Notes under the pieces: model-generated | Told to the model about the DNA's origin: nothing | The model's input: the letters and a program-made list of their open reading frames with translations, nothing else | Databases searched by the model: none | Assembly (NCBI GenBank): GCA_030765235.1 | Contig: JAVCCW010000010.1 | Coordinates: 94,907-158,906, forward strand | Origin: Candidatus Gorgyraea atricola | GTDB taxonomy: Bacteria > Omnitrophota > Gorgyraeia > Gorgyraeales > Gorgyraeaceae | Reading direction: 5' to 3' | Length of the DNA: 64,000 bases | Position numbers and translations under genes: made by a program | In this document: piece after piece, positions 11,917 to 57,945 of the stretch | Layout of the letters: each line of letters begins with the position of its first letter | Numbering within the stretch: position 1 is the stretch's first letter

Positions 11917-12012
11917 ACAAAACCTCCTTATGTTATCGTATCTAGTTTAATTACAAGGGGTAGTGTAACAGTTTCCAATTATGATGTCAAGAATGTTTTA
12001 TTAATATAACTT

Positions 12013-12060
12013 GTGGAGGTTACGAAGGTTACGGAAGGTTTCGCATTTGTACGGCTAACC
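12013..12060. repeat. Family B half copy (tgtggaggttacgaaggttacggaaggtttcg)
   Basis: One arm only. Confidence 0.7.
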
Positions 12061-12108: not shown

Positions 12109-13101
12109 TCACAAATTTACAGGAATTACGACAGAATGGACTTTTTCTTTTAAATTAAAACTATGGGGCTTTTGAAAAACTCTAATTGGCACTTTTCCTA
12201 AAACTAATGCTACATCGTCATAAAAACGGCTCTGGATGCTTTTTCCTGTAGATAAAACGTCTCTGACCTTTTTAAAAGTTGGTTGCGCTAAATAATCTAA
12301 ATATCCTAATTCTTTCATAATAAAATCTGAAAGCAATAAATCATCTCTTTCATGGGCAACAATAATAAAACCTCCGCTTTTGAGCAATTCCTCGCTTGTC
12401 TTTTTTATTAAATCTTTAATACTACTGTTAAGCCGTTTCTCGAATTCTGTTTTCTGGGCAGACTTGCTCCATTTAAACAACTCTGCGTCTGGGAATGCTT
12501 TATGATGTTCCGCCCAAGCCGTTAATCCTTTTATTAGCAGAACATCGACTCCGCCCGCTTTTTTAATTTTAGGAAAATACGACTTATAACTAAAGTTGTT
12601 TCTTGTAAACACTTTATATTTTTTTTTCATATTCCAATACATTTTTGGCAAACCTCTACCAATAGCTTCTTTTTCCAACAACTGCATATTTTTGACCGTA
12701 ACACCTATTCCATTTTTAACATTTAAACCAAAAGTCATAGTAAAATATGAAGGGAAATAATCATTCCCCCAAGAAAAATATAGTAAATTCCCTTTTAGCA
12801 CCTCTATAAAATTAAGCACCTCGAGCCTAGAGATCCAATTAGGGATTAGATTGTCGTAGTTGGTTTCCATAGAAATAATCTCTTTTAATTTTTTATTAAG
12901 TCTGTCTTGAGCCGCGAAACTATTGGAGATAATTTGTTCATTGAAATTTGCCGCTCTATCTTTATCTAATTTTAAATTTGAAGATAGAGGTTTTCTGAGA
13001 TGGACTATGTCAGAAGCATACAGAGAGCTATTAGCCATATATAATATGCCTACCAGCGCAATTGTGATTCTTAAGTTATTCCCTTTTCCAATCTCCTTCA
13101 T
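12109..13101 (-). CDS. hypothetical secreted protein (signal peptide, no recognisable domain)
   Basis: 330 aa ORF with N-terminal signal peptide; AT-rich; flanked by repeat elements. Confidence 0.5.
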   Translation of the reverse strand: MKEIGKGNNLRITIALVGILYMANSSLYASDIVHLRKPLSSNLKLDKDRAANFNEQIISNSFAAQDRLNKKLKEIISMETNYDNLIPNWISRLEVLNFIEVLKGNLLYFSWGNDYFPSYFTMTFGLNVKNGIGVTVKNMQLLEKEAIGRGLPKMYWNMKKKYKVFTRNNFSYKSYFPKIKKAGGVDVLLIKGLTAWAEHHKAFPDAELFKWSKSAQKTEFEKRLNSSIKDLIKKTSEELLKSGGFIIVAHERDDLLLSDFIMKELGYLDYLAQPTFKKVRDVLSTGKSIQSRFYDDVALVLGKVPIRVFQKPHSFNLKEKVHSVVIPVNL

Positions 13102-13208
13102 AATCCACCTAAAAAATCCTGCTTCGCAGGAATTCTGTTAGTTATTGATAATTATAGCATATAAATAGCAGCTACGCAACGATTTTAATGTCCTCCTACC
13201 CTTAGCTT

Positions 13209-13458
13209 TTTGCATCACAGGCAGGCTGGGGTCTGAGGCACATTAGGAAGATTTTGGCAAAAGTCCGCAAGGATTTACAGCGAGCCCCGTTCCAAATTCT
13301 TAAAGATTATCAAATAATATATCAAAATTGTACGCAGTTAGTTACAGATAATAAATCGAGAATCGATTAGAATTTGGAACGGGGCGAGCTGTAAACCGTA
13401 GCGGACGGCAAAATCTCTCCAGTGCCGAACGGCCCCAGCCTGTCTGTGATGCAAAAGC
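13209..13458. mobile_element. MITE-like long imperfect palindrome (two ~90 nt inverted copies around a ~70 nt AT-rich centre)
   Basis: Outer arms gcatcacaggcaggctgggg / ccccagcctgtctgtgatgc; inner arms agcgagccccgttccaaattct / agaatttggaacggggcgagct; no ORF. Confidence 0.55.
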
Positions 13459-16400
13459 CTAGTTTTTCTCAAATTTGATATGGTCGCGGCTTACGAATTC
13501 TTCTAGTTCGGTGAGCATGTCGTTGGTGACATTTACGAACAGGTCCTTGTCGACCTGGATGCGGTAGGCGCCGTTCTTCTTGGTGGAGACATTTAGGTAG
13601 ACAGGGGTAGTACCTTTGTGTCTTGCAAAAACAGTCTTTAATCTCTCGAGCATAGTCTCTTCCATGCCCAGCGAGATAAGATCAATGGAAATAGCCCGGG
13701 TAAAGCGTGTGCGTGCCTCCTCAATAGGAATGATCTCCTCGACTATTATCTTAGGACGGTCCTCCCTGAGATTTAGCCTGCCGCTCACAAACACAGCAAA
13801 ATTAGGCCTGATAAACTTTGAAACCTTCTTGTACGACGCTGGAAAAGCCAGGACCTCGACCTTGCCCTCCAGATCCTCTATCATCATAATAGCCATTCTC
13901 TCGCCAGTGCGCTTCGTGACCGTGCTCTTAACCTTATTGATAATGCCGCCAAACCAGACCTTTTGGCCATCCTTTAGATCCCTGAGTTCACTACTGTTAG
14001 CTGTTGAATATTCATTCAACTCCCTCTCGTACTTGGCAAGCGGGTGCCCTGTTATGTAAAATCCAAGCATCTCCTTTTCAAAATGAAGAAGCTGGCCCTC
14101 TGGCCATTCCTTTATATCTGGGGCCTCATCATGCATCTTTCTGTCATTAAAAAGCAGCATCTGGCCAGATGATTTTTCCTTCTGTATAGAGCTCGCTATG
14201 TCCATTGCCCTGGAAAGTATAACCATGAGCTGAGCCCTTTTAAAACCAAGGCTATCAAACGCGCCGCACTTTATAAGACTCTCCATCACCTTCTTATTTA
14301 CCAGGCGCGAATCCGTGTACTCGCAAAATTCACACAAAGACTTAAAGGCACCGTGCTCCTGTCTTGCCTGGATAATAGAATTTATAGCAGTCTGGCCCAC
14401 ATTTTTAACAGCACCCAGGCCAAAACGTATGGTGCTCTTTTCAACCATTGTAAAATTGGCAAAACTCTCATTTACATCAGGCGGCAGGATCTTCATGCCC
14501 ATCTCTTCTGCCTCGTTTATATACTCAACGATCTTGTCCGTATTATCTTTTTCGCTTGTTAGAAGCGCGGTCATGAACTCAACAGGGTAATTCGCTTTTA
14601 AAAACGCTGTCCTGTAGGAGATCATTGCGTACGCGGCAGAATGACTCTTATTAAATCCATACCCGGCAAAATGCTCTATGAAATTAAAGATCTTCTCAGC
14701 AATGCGCTTGTCGATCTTATTCTTCACAGCACCTTCAATAAACGCGCGGCGCTGCTGGTCCATTATCTCAGGCGTCTTCTTCCCTATCGCGCGGCGTAGA
14801 AGATCCGCCTGGGCAAGTGAAAAACCTGCCAGCTTAGAAACTATCATCATTACCTGTTCCTGATACACAATGATCCCGTATGTCGGCTTTAAGATAGACT
14901 CGAGCAATGGATGATCGTATCTTACATCCACTTCGCCGTGTTTTCGTTTCATAAAATCATCAAGCATGCCGCTTCCTATAGGACCAGGCCTATAAAGAGC
15001 CAAGAGCGCTACAATATCCTCGAACTCTTGAGGCTTTAACTTCTTTAGAAGATCCCTCATGCCTGAACTTTCTAACTGGAATATGCCCATTGTATGCGCG
15101 CGGCCAAAAAGCTTGTACGTCTTTGAATCATCTATTGGTATATCCTCGATATTTAATTTAATATTGTTTACCCTGTTTACTATCTTTATGGCCTCCTGGA
15201 TAACAGTGAGCGTCCTCAAGCCCAGAAAATCCATTTTTAAAAGACCTATCTTTTCGAGCGAACCCATGGCATAACCTGTTGAGATCTGACCATCCCCTGT
15301 CTTAAAAAGAGGTACGTGGTTTGATAGGACATCCTCGCTTATCACAACACCTGCGGCGTGAGTAGATGCGTGGCGTGTAAGGCCTTCGAGATGTCTCGAT
15401 GTATCAATAAGCTCTTTTATAATAGGATCTTTTTTGTAAAGGCCTTTGAGCTCTGGCTCTTGTTCAAGCGCCAGGTCCAACGTAATATTCGGATCCATTG
15501 GAACCATTTTGGCGATCTTGTCTACATCAGCGTAAGGCACATTCATTACCCTGCCGACATCCCTAAGGACGCCCCTTGCTGCCATTGTGCCAAATGTTAT
15601 GATCTGCGCTACATTATCCTGGCCATATTTCTTTATAACATAATCTATTACCTCACCCCTTCGCTCATAGCAAAAATCTATATCAATATCAGGCATGGTA
15701 ACGCGCTCACGATTCAAGAATCTTTCAAAAAGGAGATTGTATTTCAATGGATCGATGTCTGTTATGCCGAGACAGAAACTTACTATGCTTCCTGCCGCGG
15801 AACCCCTGCCAGGCCCGACTGCTATGCCCTTTTCTTTTGCAAAACTCACAAAATCCCTGGTGATAAGAAAATAACTCGTATACCCGGACTTATTGATTAC
15901 ATCCATTTCGTATTCGAGTCTTTGCCTTATCTCAGACGATGCGCCAGGATATTTCTTTTTTAGGCCCTGCTCGCAAAGATCCTTAAGGTATTTTTCGCGT
16001 GTCGTACCATCAGGCGCCACATAGTGCGGCAAATATGTCTTTGAAAAATCCAGTTCCAGATTACAGCGTTCTGTTATCTTTATGGTATTCTGGATCGCCT
16101 CAGGCACATCTTTAAAAAGAGCCTTCATCTCTTCAGGCGGCTTAAAATAAAACTGGTCTGTCTGCAGCTTCATGTGTTTTGGATCATCCAGGGTAGTCTG
16201 CGTCTGGATACAGAGAAGCGCCTCGTGCGCCCTGGCGCTGTCCTTACTAAGGTAATGCACGTCATTTGTCGCAACGAGCCCTATGTCCAGGGACCTGCCC
16301 AGCTTTATAAGGGTGGTATTTACGATCTCCTGTTCTGGGATGGAATTATTCTGGATCTCAAAATAGAAATTATCCTTACCTAAAATTTCGCGGTACTGGC

Positions 16401-16887
16401 CTGCTACCTCTTTTATTTTTGACTCTTTTTTGTTAATAGCAAGCTGCGCGCACTCGCCTTTAAGACAGGCTGAAAGCCCTATAAGGCCTTCTGAATATTT
16501 AGACAAGATCTCTTTGTCAATTCTCGGCTTATAGTAAAAGCCTTCCAGGTAGCCGATAGTAACGAGTTTCATCAGGTTCCTGTACCCGGTCTCGTCCTTT
16601 GCCAAAAGCACAAGATGATTCGATGTCTCGCCTCCGGCGTAAACAGTCTTATCGAGCCGGTTCTTTGGCGCTACGTAAACCTCGCACCCTATGATGGGTT
16701 TTACGCCATTCTGCATGCAGCTTTGATAGAATTCGATCGCGCCAAACATGTTGCCGTGGTCTGTCATCGCAACAGCAGGCATCTTCATACGCCTTGCGCT
16801 ATCAGTGAGTTTTTTTATTAGACATGCTCCGTCGAGGAGACTGTACTGCGTGTGGACATGGAGGTGTGTGAAGTCGGAATGAGGCAT
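13459..16887 (-). CDS. dnaE: DNA polymerase III alpha subunit
   Basis: 1142 aa; PHP domain start MPHSDFTHLHVHTQYSLLDGA; full-length DnaE architecture. Confidence 0.95.
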   Translation of the reverse strand: MPHSDFTHLHVHTQYSLLDGACLIKKLTDSARRMKMPAVAMTDHGNMFGAIEFYQSCMQNGVKPIIGCEVYVAPKNRLDKTVYAGGETSNHLVLLAKDETGYRNLMKLVTIGYLEGFYYKPRIDKEILSKYSEGLIGLSACLKGECAQLAINKKESKIKEVAGQYREILGKDNFYFEIQNNSIPEQEIVNTTLIKLGRSLDIGLVATNDVHYLSKDSARAHEALLCIQTQTTLDDPKHMKLQTDQFYFKPPEEMKALFKDVPEAIQNTIKITERCNLELDFSKTYLPHYVAPDGTTREKYLKDLCEQGLKKKYPGASSEIRQRLEYEMDVINKSGYTSYFLITRDFVSFAKEKGIAVGPGRGSAAGSIVSFCLGITDIDPLKYNLLFERFLNRERVTMPDIDIDFCYERRGEVIDYVIKKYGQDNVAQIITFGTMAARGVLRDVGRVMNVPYADVDKIAKMVPMDPNITLDLALEQEPELKGLYKKDPIIKELIDTSRHLEGLTRHASTHAAGVVISEDVLSNHVPLFKTGDGQISTGYAMGSLEKIGLLKMDFLGLRTLTVIQEAIKIVNRVNNIKLNIEDIPIDDSKTYKLFGRAHTMGIFQLESSGMRDLLKKLKPQEFEDIVALLALYRPGPIGSGMLDDFMKRKHGEVDVRYDHPLLESILKPTYGIIVYQEQVMMIVSKLAGFSLAQADLLRRAIGKKTPEIMDQQRRAFIEGAVKNKIDKRIAEKIFNFIEHFAGYGFNKSHSAAYAMISYRTAFLKANYPVEFMTALLTSEKDNTDKIVEYINEAEEMGMKILPPDVNESFANFTMVEKSTIRFGLGAVKNVGQTAINSIIQARQEHGAFKSLCEFCEYTDSRLVNKKVMESLIKCGAFDSLGFKRAQLMVILSRAMDIASSIQKEKSSGQMLLFNDRKMHDEAPDIKEWPEGQLLHFEKEMLGFYITGHPLAKYERELNEYSTANSSELRDLKDGQKVWFGGIINKVKSTVTKRTGERMAIMMIEDLEGKVEVLAFPASYKKVSKFIRPNFAVFVSGRLNLREDRPKIIVEEIIPIEEARTRFTRAISIDLISLGMEETMLERLKTVFARHKGTTPVYLNVSTKKNGAYRIQVDKDLFVNVTNDMLTELEEFVSRDHIKFEKN

Positions 16888-16893
16888 AAATAG

Positions 16894-17018
16894 AAAATCC
16901 CAAATCCCAATAATACCAATACTACCAAATAAATCCCAATTTCAAAATCCCAAACATGTGTTGGGGTTTGGGATTTTGGATTTATTTGGGATTTGGTAGT
17001 ATTTGGATTTGGGATTTA
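16894..17018. repeat. Family A palindromic repeat copy
   Basis: Near-identical to 586-705 and 18210-18334. Confidence 0.9.
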
Positions 17019-18209: not shown

Positions 18210-18334
18210 AAAATCCCAAATCCCAATAATACCAATACTACCAAATAAATCCCAATTTCAAAATCCCAAACATGTGTTGGGATTTGGGATTTTGGATTTA
18301 TTTGGGATTTGGTAGTATTTGGATTTTGGATTTT
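18210..18334. repeat. Family A palindromic repeat copy
   Basis: Near-identical to 16894-17018. Confidence 0.9.
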
Positions 18335-22295: not shown

Positions 22296-22312
22296 GTGTT
22301 CCTCCTGTTTTT

Positions 22313-22420
22313 AGCGAAGGTTTCGTAAGGTTGTGTGAGGTTTCGTTAGGTTGCGTAAGGTTACATTATTGCAACTTCACGAAACATTACGAAACTTTAC
22401 GCAACTTCACGCAACCTCCA
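22313..22420. repeat. Family B palindromic repeat copy
   Basis: gcgaaggtttcgtaaggtt...cgcaacttcacgcaacctcc. Confidence 0.85.
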
Positions 22421-22472: not shown

Positions 22473-22512
22473 AAAAACCCCGTTCCAAATTCTTAATTAA
22501 GAATTTGGAACG
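22473..22512 (-). terminator. groEL rho-independent terminator (perfect palindrome ccccgttccaaattcttaa/ttaagaatttggaacgggg + T-run)
   Basis: Perfect 19-bp stems followed by ttttt on the minus strand; preceded by a second hairpin at 22546-22577 (tgtaggtgaccctt/aagggtcacctaca). Confidence 0.7.
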
Positions 22513-22592
22513 GGGCACGGCCCGCGAGTTTGCGCGAGTTATCCACATTGTAGGTGACCCTTAAGGGTCACCTACAATTAGTTGTTTGCGTA

Positions 22593-24345
<1,753 letters not shown>

Positions 24346-27462: not shown

Positions 27463-27700
27463 AAAAAACTCTTAATCCATTATAGTGGATTAAGAGTTGC
27501 ACCCTGTTTTCTTCACCCTTTATGACTGCCCTCAGCAGCTCCCTGTTATAGGGAAAAATATATTGTAAGGTTTTCTGACTTAAGGCCGTCTACTCTCTGC
27601 GCCTTCTCGTCCGCCCAAAGCGAACAATGGCTTATTGCAGATTTCGTAACCTATTACAGCAGCGGGGCTGCGCTGGACTCCCACCAGCTTCCCTTAAACA
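27463..27700 (-). promoter_or_regulatory. cobalamin (B12) riboswitch with terminator expression platform
   Basis: Minus strand AAGGGAAGCTGGTGGGAGTCCAGCGCAGCCCCGCTGCTGTAATAGG matches the AAGGGAA..GGTG..A.TCC..GC.G.CCCGC..CTGTAA core; GAAGGC further on. Terminator aactcttaatccactataatggattaagagtttttt at 27463-27499. Candidate promoter TTGACT-17-TATAAA at about 27740-27770. Confidence 0.75.
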
Positions 27701-27771
27701 ACATAATATGAAATATTCAATTGTAAATATTTTATACCCTAATTACTAAAACAAGTCAACAAAAAAATACC

Positions 27772-30821: not shown

Positions 30822-30957
30822 TTAGAAACTCTAAACACTAAACTCTAAATCCTAAACAAACTCAAAACACAAAACTCAAATGCCAAAACTGCAGTTTTGA
30901 GTTTTGGATTTGGGGTTTTGGATTTGTTTAGAGTTTAGGGTTTCGAATTTAGAGTTT
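30822..30957. repeat. Family F palindromic repeat (aaactctaaa.../...gttttggatttggggttttgg, centre ctgcag)
   Basis: Imperfect inverted repeat; right arm shares words with family A. Confidence 0.8.
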
Positions 30958-30964
30958 ATATTTA

Positions 30965-56772: not shown

Positions 56773-57945
56773 ACAGAAACCAAACCCTTATCACCCCTCA
56801 TATTTATTCCCTTATTATCCCTTATCTTCATCCGGCCTTTCATCTCTGGCCTTGCATACCCGGCCTTTGAGATGTTTTATGAAAACATCTTGATATTCCT
56901 TGCTATCATGATCTTATTCATGGAAAGATCCAGATTTAAACTGTATCCTAAAAATTTCAGTAACTTCCCTGTAATATTCCTATTATTTGCCTATGCTATT
57001 TCAACTATATTCTCGATCAACATACAAAACTCTATTAGAGAAACGCTTAAATTCATCAGTTTCTTTGCCATATTCTTTATGGTTTCCCAATCTGATGAAA
57101 AACAAAAGAAACTGCTGCTAAAGACCATTGTCATAGCTGCTTCAATAATAAGTCTGTATTCAATATACCAGTACTTCTGGGGATATGGACGCACACTAGA
57201 TTATCTACAAAAAACCAACAGCGATTTTCTCTCCACCTCTTCCTATGCCCGCGACATCCTGCTCTCAAAACGCGCAATAGGAACATTTCCCTCTCCGAAT
57301 ATCTTAGCTGGATACTTGATAATAATGTTTTTTCTCGCAATGCACTTACAGCGTCGCATTTCGCTAGTTCTAATCACTGCTGCGTTAATCCTCACTAAAT
57401 CCATGGGCGCGTGGTTAAGTCTTATTGCTGCACTGATCTACCTCGGTAACTTCGTAAGTTACCCAAAGGGTAACTTACGAAGTTACCGAGGTAAGTTAAT
57501 GGCAGTATTAATCGTAGCTATACTATGTTTTATCCTCGTGAATCGCTGGGAACGCCTGATGAACATGGAAAACCCGCAAAATTCCATTACCCAGCGCCTA
57601 AACTACTGGCGCACAGCCATAGCCATAATAAAAGATCAGGCTATTTTTGGAGTCGGACCTGGTAATTTTCAAGAAGTCTTCTTGGGGCATAAGGTAGGCT
57701 TAGGCACAGATACAAGATACGCGCATAACATATTTCTTCACATATGGTCAGAAATAGGTATCTTAGGTCTTGTAGGAGTCTTTTACCTTATTATTAATTT
57801 TTTCAGAAAAGCCAGATCTCAATCCAGCTATAGATTTATACTGTGCGGCGGGCTTGTGTTTATCCTGCATAATCTCATAGATAATACCTTTTTCATGCCT
57901 CAAGCTGCACTCTTCTGGTGGATATTACTGGCTTCTAAGGAATAG
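56764..57945 (+). CDS. O-antigen ligase/polymerase family membrane protein (Wzy_C domain)
   Basis: 393 aa polytopic membrane protein. Contains in-frame perfect palindrome at 57441-57491. Confidence 0.7.
   Translation: MNQTETKPLSPLIFIPLLSLIFIRPFISGLAYPAFEMFYENILIFLAIMILFMERSRFKLYPKNFSNFPVIFLLFAYAISTIFSINIQNSIRETLKFISFFAIFFMVSQSDEKQKKLLLKTIVIAASIISLYSIYQYFWGYGRTLDYLQKTNSDFLSTSSYARDILLSKRAIGTFPSPNILAGYLIIMFFLAMHLQRRISLVLITAALILTKSMGAWLSLIAALIYLGNFVSYPKGNLRSYRGKLMAVLIVAILCFILVNRWERLMNMENPQNSITQRLNYWRTAIAIIKDQAIFGVGPGNFQEVFLGHKVGLGTDTRYAHNIFLHIWSEIGILGLVGVFYLIINFFRKARSQSSYRFILCGGLVFILHNLIDNTFFMPQAALFWWILLASKE
57441..57491. repeat. Perfect 24-bp-arm palindrome inside O-antigen ligase CDS (cctcggtaacttcgtaagttaccc-aaa-gggtaacttacgaagttaccgagg)
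   Basis: 51 nt = 17 codons encoding LGNFVSYPKGNLRSYRG; words ttacgaag/cttcgtaa relate it to family B. Confidence 0.85.

Follow-up and report, generated by a model that had tools for sequence, protein, structure and literature searches.

Two dispersed, non-coding repeat families of Omnitrophota are nested in a long palindrome at the 3' end of dnaE in Candidatus Gorgyraea atricola

The enterobacterial repetitive intergenic consensus (ERIC) elements, also called intergenic repeat units (IRU), of the Enterobacteriaceae are among the closest described systems to the element analyzed here. They are imperfect palindromes of ~127 bp which are listed as miniature inverted-repeat transposable elements (MITEs), and their copies carry terminal inverted repeats (TIRs) and are flanked by a duplication of TA (PMC3184786). 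The subject of this study is a long imperfect palindrome next to dnaE of Candidatus Gorgyraea atricola, a member of the Omnitrophota. The window, i.e. the whole stretch of DNA that was analyzed, comprised 64,000 nt of contig JAVCCW010000010.1 (GCA_030765235.1), positions 94,907 to 158,906 of the forward strand. Other loci are denoted by L and a number. In an initial annotation, the palindrome had been described as a MITE-like element of 250 bp which could be a non-autonomous transposon, a large structured RNA, or a terminator or replication-associated structure. Our analysis showed that, rather than being one MITE, it is composed of two repeats from unrelated families, one nested in the other, both of which are non-coding and dispersed in Omnitrophota. 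As a full explanation we regard it as rather probable that an inner MITE was nested into an outer long-hairpin repeat, with the history and the effect on the mRNA that are proposed below.

The imperfect palindrome at positions 13209-13458 of the window was borne out by an inverted-repeat search, by self-alignment and by folding, and its full extent was 13203-13461. The inverted-repeat search revealed inner arms of 56 nt (13263-13318/13351-13406, complementarity 79%) and outermost arms of 29 nt (13203-13231/13433-13461, complementarity 90%). In a BLAST self-alignment the element matched its own reverse complement with 71.8% over 262 nt. Each single strand folded into one rod, with -130.0 kcal/mol (z -15.4) for the minus strand and -139.1 kcal/mol (z -13.8) for the plus strand, and none of 200 dinucleotide shuffles reached a comparable folding energy. 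Both motifs quoted in the initial annotation were present in inverted copies within the arms, namely GCATCACAG[G/A]CAGGCTGGGG at 13212 (+) and 13452 (-) and CCCCGTTCCAAATTCT at 13285 (+) and 13384 (-). The AT-rich centre between the two CCCCGTTCCAAATTCT motifs, for which ~70 nt had been given, measured 68 nt. The element was also correctly said to lack an ORF, as it was overlapped by chance ORFs of 38 and 44 aa only, and to start at the dnaE stop codon (TAG on the minus strand, 13459-13461), which is reached by the outermost arm. A scan for tRNA and tmRNA genes across the window gave no match.

To delimit the parts of the palindrome we relied on its matches elsewhere. When one genome per species was scanned for CCCCGTTCCAAATTCTWA, 55 loci were obtained. 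Most of them came from metagenome-assembled genomes (MAGs) of Omnitrophota and one single-amplified genome, or from MAGs with the label 'uncultured Planctomycetia', and some ten isolated matches in unrelated taxa resembled chance. When the element was compared with these 55 genome loci by BLAST, query positions 90-191 (window 13284-13385) matched ~40 loci with 80-89% identity. Query positions 24-91 and 190-248 matched five loci (L008, L032, L040, L042 and L049), in which the arms enclosed a different centre of 38-58 nt. Since centre and arms match separately, the palindrome is a composite. Thus, both parts are multi-copy in Omnitrophota genomes, and the palindrome is not a single-copy sequence without related TIRs.

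The composite is bounded by a local flanking palindrome found by the inverted-repeat search, the left half of which (GCTTTTTGCATCACA, 13205-13219) pairs with the right half (TGTGATGCAAAAGC, 13445-13458), the latter ending one base short of the dnaE stop codon. Within it, the 5' arm of the outer hairpin repeat (GGCAGGCTGGGGTCTGAGGCACATTAGGAAGATTTTGGCAAAAGTCCGCAAGGATTTACAGCGAG) spans 13220-13284 on the plus strand and aligns to the copies of the five loci named above. The arm ends with CGAG (13281-13284), which is the left direct-repeat copy beside the inner MITE and at the same time belongs to a conserved CGAG/CGAG tandem G·A step of the outer family. The inner MITE (13285-13384, +) is composed of a left TIR (13285-13300), an AT-rich core of 68 nt (13301-13368) and a right TIR (13369-13384). 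The right CGAG copy (13385-13388) opens the 3' arm of the outer repeat (CGAGCTGTAAACCGTAGCGGACGGCAAAATCTCTCCAGTGCCGAACGGCCCCAGCCTGTC, 13385-13444, +), which holds the most conserved block of the family, AAACCGTAGCnnACGGCAAAA. The MITE thereby occupies the place of the usual apical module of the outer element, between its two CGAG steps.

The inner 100 bp are a classical MITE, and a new one, whose partner insertion sequence (IS) was not found among the fetched loci. The initial proposal of a non-autonomous transposon therefore holds for this part, which shows TIRs, a 4-bp target duplication and paralogues with empty sites and belongs to a small, non-coding, multi-copy family, but not for the 250-bp unit, which recurs nowhere. 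The TIRs of 15-16 bp (CCCCGTTCCAAATTC/GAATTTGGAACGGGG) were almost invariant across 32 aligned copies. In total, 47 TIR pairs were found in the genome loci and the window. A core of 68-71 nt was present in 35 of these, loops of 6-7 nt were present in eight, and four were intermediate. The long copies (~35) were 80-89% identical and occurred in either orientation. The short forms keep a few bases of the core ends and are therefore internal-deletion derivatives. The core of the MITE is AT-rich, well conserved and asymmetric, and in RNAalifold the TIR stem was the sole conserved pairing, the core being without pairing or covariation. Of the large structured RNA that had been considered initially, the outer part with its conserved core and covariation is the only candidate left.

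A perfect 4-bp direct repeat was located directly outside CCCCG...CGGGG in 26 of 46 inner copies (~0.2 by chance). The target-site duplication looked for thus exists at the inner MITE, but none surrounds the 250-bp unit. The duplicated bases were mostly of the type CNNG (CACG/CGTG, CGGG/CCCG, CTTG/CAAG, CGAG, CTCG), and divergent subfamilies duplicated TGTA, TTTA and TGAA. Furthermore, a recurrent target of 28 nt (TGACAA...CACG...TTGTCA; TGACAATCTTGACACGTTCATTTTGTCA-type) was known both empty and filled, with CACG duplicated when filled; empty targets were found in L029 (2154), L051 (1185), L042 (831) and L010 (4423). The flanks of the MITE insertions were more palindromic than random sites (5.5 vs 4.2 of 10, p 3e-5). 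A general preference for hairpin apexes was considered and dropped, and we claim no general insertion rule, since a small number of recurrent repeat targets account for the signal. CC ends together with a duplication of 4-5 bp are features of the IS1380 family, and this is a lead to the transposase of the MITE rather than a test.

Several further arrangements of the inner family were observed. L035 (5279-5586) carried a tandem triple of the MITE with shared CACG junctions, and in L036 (1862-2057) a further palindrome was nested in the core of the MITE. A recurrent double palindrome of 29 nt, TGACAAnnnnTGACAwTGTCAnnnnTTGTCA, is related to the 28-nt target. It was located in L017 (4329-4357), L020 (1560-1588), L027 (7321-7349), L033 (3020-3048), L040 (510-538), L046 (2556-2584), L050 (2219-2247) and L051 (4216-4244) and looks like a candidate protein-binding site or like paired -35-like boxes facing both ways. 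In the window, a short form of the MITE with a 16-bp stem and a 6-nt loop was present at 22478-22515 (-), without flanking duplication and followed by TTTTTATTTTTT. It lies ~80 nt downstream of a gene (22593-24281) which ends in a GroEL-type GGM tail, and a second hairpin (~22549-22580) is located between this short form and the stop codon of the GroEL-like gene. Judged by its sequence, the short form together with its U-tract resembles an intrinsic terminator that arose from a repeat.

The outer family was analyzed by a metagenome scan with the conserved block AAACCGTAGCnnACGGCAAAA, in which at least 120 stretches were found to carry it. The repeat has a length of ~150-220 nt and up to ~380 nt with extensions. 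All four loci with organism-named flanking proteins among the matches listed were assigned to Omnitrophota. From the base upward, the hairpin consists of a subfamily-specific basal helix, a tandem G·A step (TGAG/GAA), a helix GCRYGC and a loop ATTA/A. These are followed in the middle by an A/T-rich helix, the motif GGCA-AAAG/G, a helix GTCnGC/GCnGAC and a loop AA/GTA. The top is formed by a helix GGATTTAC/GTAAACC, the second tandem G·A step (CGAG/CGAG) and the apical module of 35-60 nt, of which about three types exist. The flanking palindrome of the window was not common to other outer copies, whose flanks differ yet are also palindromic (L032, L049 and L040), and an empty version of it was not found.

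The structure of the outer family is supported by covariation. With an alignment of 53 non-redundant copies, RNAalifold gave 32-33 pairs, and 18 of the 32 counted pairs had changed on both sides. Partly compensatory differences between the arms had been described initially from a single copy; compensatory changes proved abundant when the outer arms were compared across their family. In the alignment 93.8% of the cells were paired as compared to 78.2% after shuffling. The covariation score was 0.415 vs 0.137 for shuffled alignments, with none of 500 shuffles reaching it and slid partners scoring 0.095 at most. A covariance model built from the aligned copies, here named R1, scored positions 13226-13439 (+) of the window at 111 bits (E 1e-26) despite the insert of 100 nt, and gave 107 strong matches in 100 sources in both orientations. 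The variable basal stems might be regarded as palindromes derived from the target. This was rejected for the G5 subfamily, in which two conserved modules enclose the variable helix and few, mostly compensated changes distinguish the copies; changes by compensated steps point to selection on pairing rather than to target-derived flanks. Since the core sequence of the family, its asymmetric internal loops and its tandem G·A motifs are conserved throughout the phylum while its helices drift with compensatory changes, selection appears to act on a folded single strand, either RNA or single-stranded DNA (ssDNA).

The outer copies are densely dispersed, with four in 10 kb (L134) and three in 13 kb (L124), and form inverted doublets 40-160 nt apart in L057, L062 and L134. 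Where copies were 90-96% identical, the match stopped abruptly at the edges of the element and the flanks were unrelated. One element was 92% identical and inverted beside a gene that was only 72% identical. The neighbours were housekeeping genes (rho, coaE, polA, prfB), and 60 of 69 classifiable copies were located between co-directional genes, with a median distance of 47 nt from the upstream stop as compared to 82 nt from the downstream start. No gene family was tied to the outer element when the two nearest ORFs per side were clustered, as no cluster exceeded four members and neither side nor strand was consistent. ORFs between paired copies were housekeeping genes or orphans without significant Pfam match, and no transposase or RAYT-like gene (REP-associated tyrosine transposase; REP, repetitive extragenic palindromic) was present beside or between copies in the sampled flanks of up to 10 kb.

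Searches for known counterparts of the outer family were negative. Rfam 15 gave no match at gathering threshold at the window site or in 18 loci with intact outer copies, and at E<=10 only generic long-hairpin models (miRNA precursors) far below their thresholds were obtained for the window copy and intact outer copies. No match was found in viral contigs by two pattern scans, nor by BLAST of an intact outer copy and of the whole composite against phages and plasmids, so that an origin from phages or plasmids is unsupported. An integron attC site was also considered and rejected. By inspection, the outer consensus has no core sites (RYYYAAC/GTTRRRY), the neighbours are housekeeping genes and the copies occur in both orientations. 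A literature search gave no paper on repeats or on structured or non-coding RNAs of Omnitrophota. As an additional observation, some outer subfamilies sit inside further conserved palindromic layers (…GCTCGCTCGTCTTTTTGCC…GGCAAAAAGACACCGTGCCCGCTCG…) with rod-like folds of 330-390 nt. Such layered copies were found in L064 (1882-2211), L066 (4298-4675) and L121 (4612-4999), on the strand of the AAACCGTAGC block, which is the reverse strand in L066. For the outermost layer of the L064 type, TCTTTTTGCC...GGCAAAAAGA, no copy without the outer element inside was found.

The gene dnaE (13459-16887, minus strand) encodes DNA polymerase III alpha of 1142 aa. Its homologues were 94-63% identical, with PHP, DNA_pol3_alpha and related Pfam domains, and all organism-named ones were labelled Candidatus Omnitrophica/Omnitrophota. 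In L177, L178 and L179, whose DnaE proteins are 82-83% identical, dnaE is followed after ~90 nt by the HU gene with a promoter, hisS and aspS. This order of genes is kept in the window, but ~1.35 kb, consisting of the palindrome and an orphan ORF of low G+C content, lie between dnaE and HU. A relative with 81% DnaE identity carried an unrelated ORF of 107 aa in this spacer. In the closest relative, L176 (DnaE 94%), unrelated sequence with a different ORF follows directly after the stop codon. The composite is thus missing beside dnaE genes with 82-94% identity, and we regard it as a lineage-specific insertion into a variable dnaE-HU spacer, not as a conserved feature of dnaE.

How the two elements may have come together can be proposed as follows. 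A putative DDE-type transposase acting in trans would recognise the 15-16-bp TIRs CCCCGTTCCAAATTC and produce the 4-bp duplication, with a preference for CNNG sites, often inside palindromic repeats. The outer element would have reached the dnaE-HU spacer first, either inside the local palindrome right after the dnaE stop codon or forming it. Next, insertion of the MITE into a standard outer copy, behind its CAG^CGAG motif, would have produced a second CGAG. If the stretch from this second CGAG to the native one on the 3' side was subsequently deleted, the displaced apical module would have been lost and the long palindrome would have become near-perfect again. Loss of sequence between short direct repeats on either side of a hairpin is well known as a slippage event. 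The target motif CAGCGAG is common to the window, L010, L177 and L040, with CCCCG following at the left junction, and in L010 and L177 this junction lies in the loop of a small hairpin. Furthermore, an inner and an outer copy are found side by side in another spacer of L177. This spacer measures 81-108 nt and is empty of both elements in L178 and L180, and it is free of them in the window, too. The repeats therefore form lineage-specific mosaics, as REPs form bacterial interspersed mosaic elements (BIMEs).

Several observations weigh against parts of this explanation. The arm search suggested in the initial annotation showed that both parts are multi-copy but detected no autonomous partner: in 1.17 Mb of fetched loci there was no TIR pair 0.6-3.5 kb apart with a duplication, and degenerate TIR pairs 0.4-4 kb apart were only chance or duplicated-MITE pairs. 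Transposition in trans is for this reason something we infer. Many MITE copies lie within recurrent repeat modules, so that some apparent insertions may be one event which was later amplified. CGAG...CGAG is also the native motif of the outer family, which makes the target duplication of the window copy ambiguous. None of ~103 outer copies measured had a bare apex, and the replacement of the apical module would hence need the extra deletion step. In L118 (9091-9246), a relative of the inner hairpin replaces the outer apex at a boundary other than that in the window, which is not accounted for by insertion followed by deletion and hints at a further process.

For the outer family itself, target duplications were looked for in the flanks of six subfamilies, but none was consistent; conservation resides in the interior core, the termini differing from subfamily to subfamily. 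The evidence on the strand is weak and conflicting as well. On the AAACCGTAGC strand of the outer copies, G·T pairs exceeded A·C pairs (35 vs 20, with wobble pairs in ~2% of the cells), yet this strand was antisense to the flanking genes in 39 of 60 co-directional cases.

With regard to dnaE expression, read-through transcripts would end in or pass a hairpin of ~250 nt with ~-130 kcal/mol. This hairpin would act as an exonuclease barrier and 3' stabiliser or as a target of RNase III. By analogy with REP, ERIC and Correia elements, a role as 3' barrier or RNase III substrate is most plausible (PMC3184786). Since close relatives manage without the composite, it is dispensable for dnaE and is probably selfish DNA with a side effect on the dnaE mRNA.

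Two other interpretations concern the palindrome as a whole. A long imperfect intergenic palindrome without an ORF, whose sequence components are both multi-copy, could be read as a single MITE with its ~90-nt arms as TIRs. This is barely credible, because no other locus among the 55 genome loci held the 250-bp unit in BLAST, its flanks are inverted (CACA/TGTG) without a direct repeat, centre and arms are found apart at dozens of sites, and the arms normally surround a different centre of 35-60 nt. The extreme stability of the hairpin and its start at the dnaE stop codon would suit a role as functional terminator of dnaE transcription or as a structure linked to this gene and associated with replication, and the short inner form with its U-tract resembles a real terminator after the GroEL-like gene. 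We nevertheless consider this highly improbable. The composite is not a canonical terminator because no U-tract follows on either strand, the bases after it on the minus strand being GCTAAGGGTAGG, and it was not listed in an intrinsic-terminator scan of the window. No observation connects it with replication, such a structure is missing in relatives whose dnaE is 82-94% identical, and other copies of both parts adjoin unrelated genes.

For the outer family, it is unlikely, yet worth weighing, that it constitutes a true family of non-coding RNA genes whose products act in trans or are processed from operon transcripts and combine a conserved protein-binding core with an apical domain that can be exchanged, the window copy being a member disabled or remodelled by the MITE. 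The internal loops conserved across the phylum (ATTAG, GGCA, GCAAGG, CCGTAGC), the tandem G·A motifs and covarying helices, the three recurring types of apical module, the element with 92% identity next to a gene with only 72%, and TAnAAT-like boxes that by inspection abut many copies would agree with this, and as an RNA the family would be new since it matches no Rfam family. However, up to four copies in 10 kb, both orientations and inverted doublets are more typical of dispersed repeats, the rare wobble pairs are almost symmetric between strands, no terminator follows the element, and the AT-rich boxes themselves belong to the palindrome on both strands. A DNA-level element similar to REPs or to their hairpin-forming doublets (REPINs) would be folded as ssDNA and copied without duplications by a putative HUH (RAYT-like) or other structure-specific recombinase. 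The missing target duplication, the variable termini, the structure being kept while helix sequence is not, the scarcity of wobble pairs as expected of DNA hairpins, the inverted doublets like those of REPINs, and GTAG within the conserved block speak in its favour. We still rate it as quite unlikely, given that no RAYT or transposase gene lay next to or between the copies in the sampled loci and that the elements are four to eight times as long as REPs. A broader possibility, which from the sequences can be put forward as tentative at best, is that the outer arms represent an undescribed, phylum-wide functional folded nucleic acid of Omnitrophota, a hairpin of ~170 nt with a conserved irregular core of tandem G·A motifs and fixed asymmetric loops, helices that drift fast but stay complementary, and exchangeable apical modules, which would be read by a dedicated protein. 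It might exist as RNA processed from operon transcripts or as ssDNA copied by a structure-specific recombinase, and palindrome-seeking MITEs would build nested palindromes on it.

Besides the composite, and adjoining it on the side away from dnaE, the dnaE-HU spacer contains an orphan ORF of 330 aa (12109-13101, minus strand) with a hydrophobic N-terminus, which is absent from L176-L181. Its G+C content of 0.29-0.36 differs from that of the neighbours (0.42-0.48), and it had no Pfam match. It was considered as a transposase or cassette partner and rejected, as it has no Pfam domain and shows no relationship to the ORF which occupies this place in the closest relative. On the dnaE-sense strand, ~50 nt past the hairpin, lies an extended -10 promoter-like site, TGCTATAAT (+ strand 13151-13159). 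A terminator-like hairpin with a T-run (13117-13131) directly precedes the ribosome-binding site of the orphan ORF and, as its sequence and position suggest, could be an attenuator of this ORF.

Additional repeats were found in the window. A third palindromic family (CCAAATAAATCCCAATTTCAAAATCCCAA...) was present at 611-675, 16895-17017 (with 16925-16989 nested) and 18241-18305. Since one of these copies immediately precedes the dnaE start, palindromic repeats bracket dnaE on both sides. Runs of a unit of ~10 nt (CGTAAGGTT/GGTTACG) form inverted blocks in spacers at 22300-22420 and ~12010-12060 and also in L176 (2510-2650), this repeat type being common to the window and its closest relative. 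A palindrome of 138 nt composed of AAACTCTAAAC-like units (30823-30960) and a perfect inverted repeat of 26 bp with a 3-nt spacer (57439-57493) were detected as well. A cobalamin riboswitch was located at 27548-27743 (-) (RF00174, 87 bits, E 4e-20).

The Omnitrophota are uncultured, very small bacteria, and the locus reveals two abundant element families in them. The repeats fill operon spacers beside essential genes (dnaE, rho, polA). A hairpin of ~-130 kcal/mol at such places should influence how mRNA decays and how the expression of genes is coupled. MAG contigs ended inside or within ~100 nt of inner MITE copies in L003, L011, L034, L039 and L051, which suggests that the repeats fragment assemblies of Omnitrophota. 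Among structured elements that sequence alone can provide, the outer hairpin ranks with the better-supported ones, given its 18 covarying pairs and its conserved non-Watson-Crick motifs, and it is a concrete candidate for a new RNA or ssDNA-protein system. The signature of the MITE, TIRs plus CNNG duplication, is a tractable handle for finding its transposase, and the carrier to be sought is an element bounded by CCCCGTTCC...GGAACGGGG with a 4-bp duplication. The nesting itself offers a natural example of the way in which bacterial chromosomes build up and tolerate long palindromes.

When compared with known systems, the outer family resembles ERIC in being an imperfect long hairpin that is intergenic, mostly within operons, found in both orientations and conserved across distant species, with size variants due to insertions at fixed internal positions. 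The ERIC stem was reportedly found by Wilson and Sharp in 2006 to be maintained by compensatory changes. In contrast to ERIC, the outer family has no consistent duplication, it is conserved in its interior core and variable between subfamilies at its termini, it is longer (150-220 nt, up to ~380 nt), it is so far confined to Omnitrophota, and it is unusually rich in conserved non-Watson-Crick features. Of the features of a REP/REPIN-RAYT system, inverted doublets and GTAG in the conserved block were observed, but the element measures 150-220 nt and no RAYT-like gene was present in the sampled flanks. REPs, with 20-40 nt, are much shorter than the outer family, which in addition has an irregular core that is conserved.

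The inner MITE is comparable to the Correia elements of Neisseria (Correia repeat enclosed elements, CREE), RUP, Nezha and Chunjie in its size class of ~100-150 bp, TIRs, short duplication and lack of an ORF, and it shares with Correia elements and classical MITEs the many copies, the internal-deletion variants and the mRNA hairpin formed when transcribed (PMC3184786). It differs from them in the TIR sequence and in the 4-bp CNNG duplication instead of TA; moreover, its insertions lie preferentially within other palindromic repeats and no partner IS was found in the fetched loci. The clustering of several palindromic modules in one spacer (L177 2121-2697; L032, L040 and L049) is reminiscent of REPs and BIMEs. 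IS1397, ISKpn1 and IS621, which insert into REPs (references in PMC3184786), are likewise mobile elements inside a palindromic repeat. Here, in contrast, the inserted element is a non-coding MITE, and the outcome is a larger, nested palindrome.

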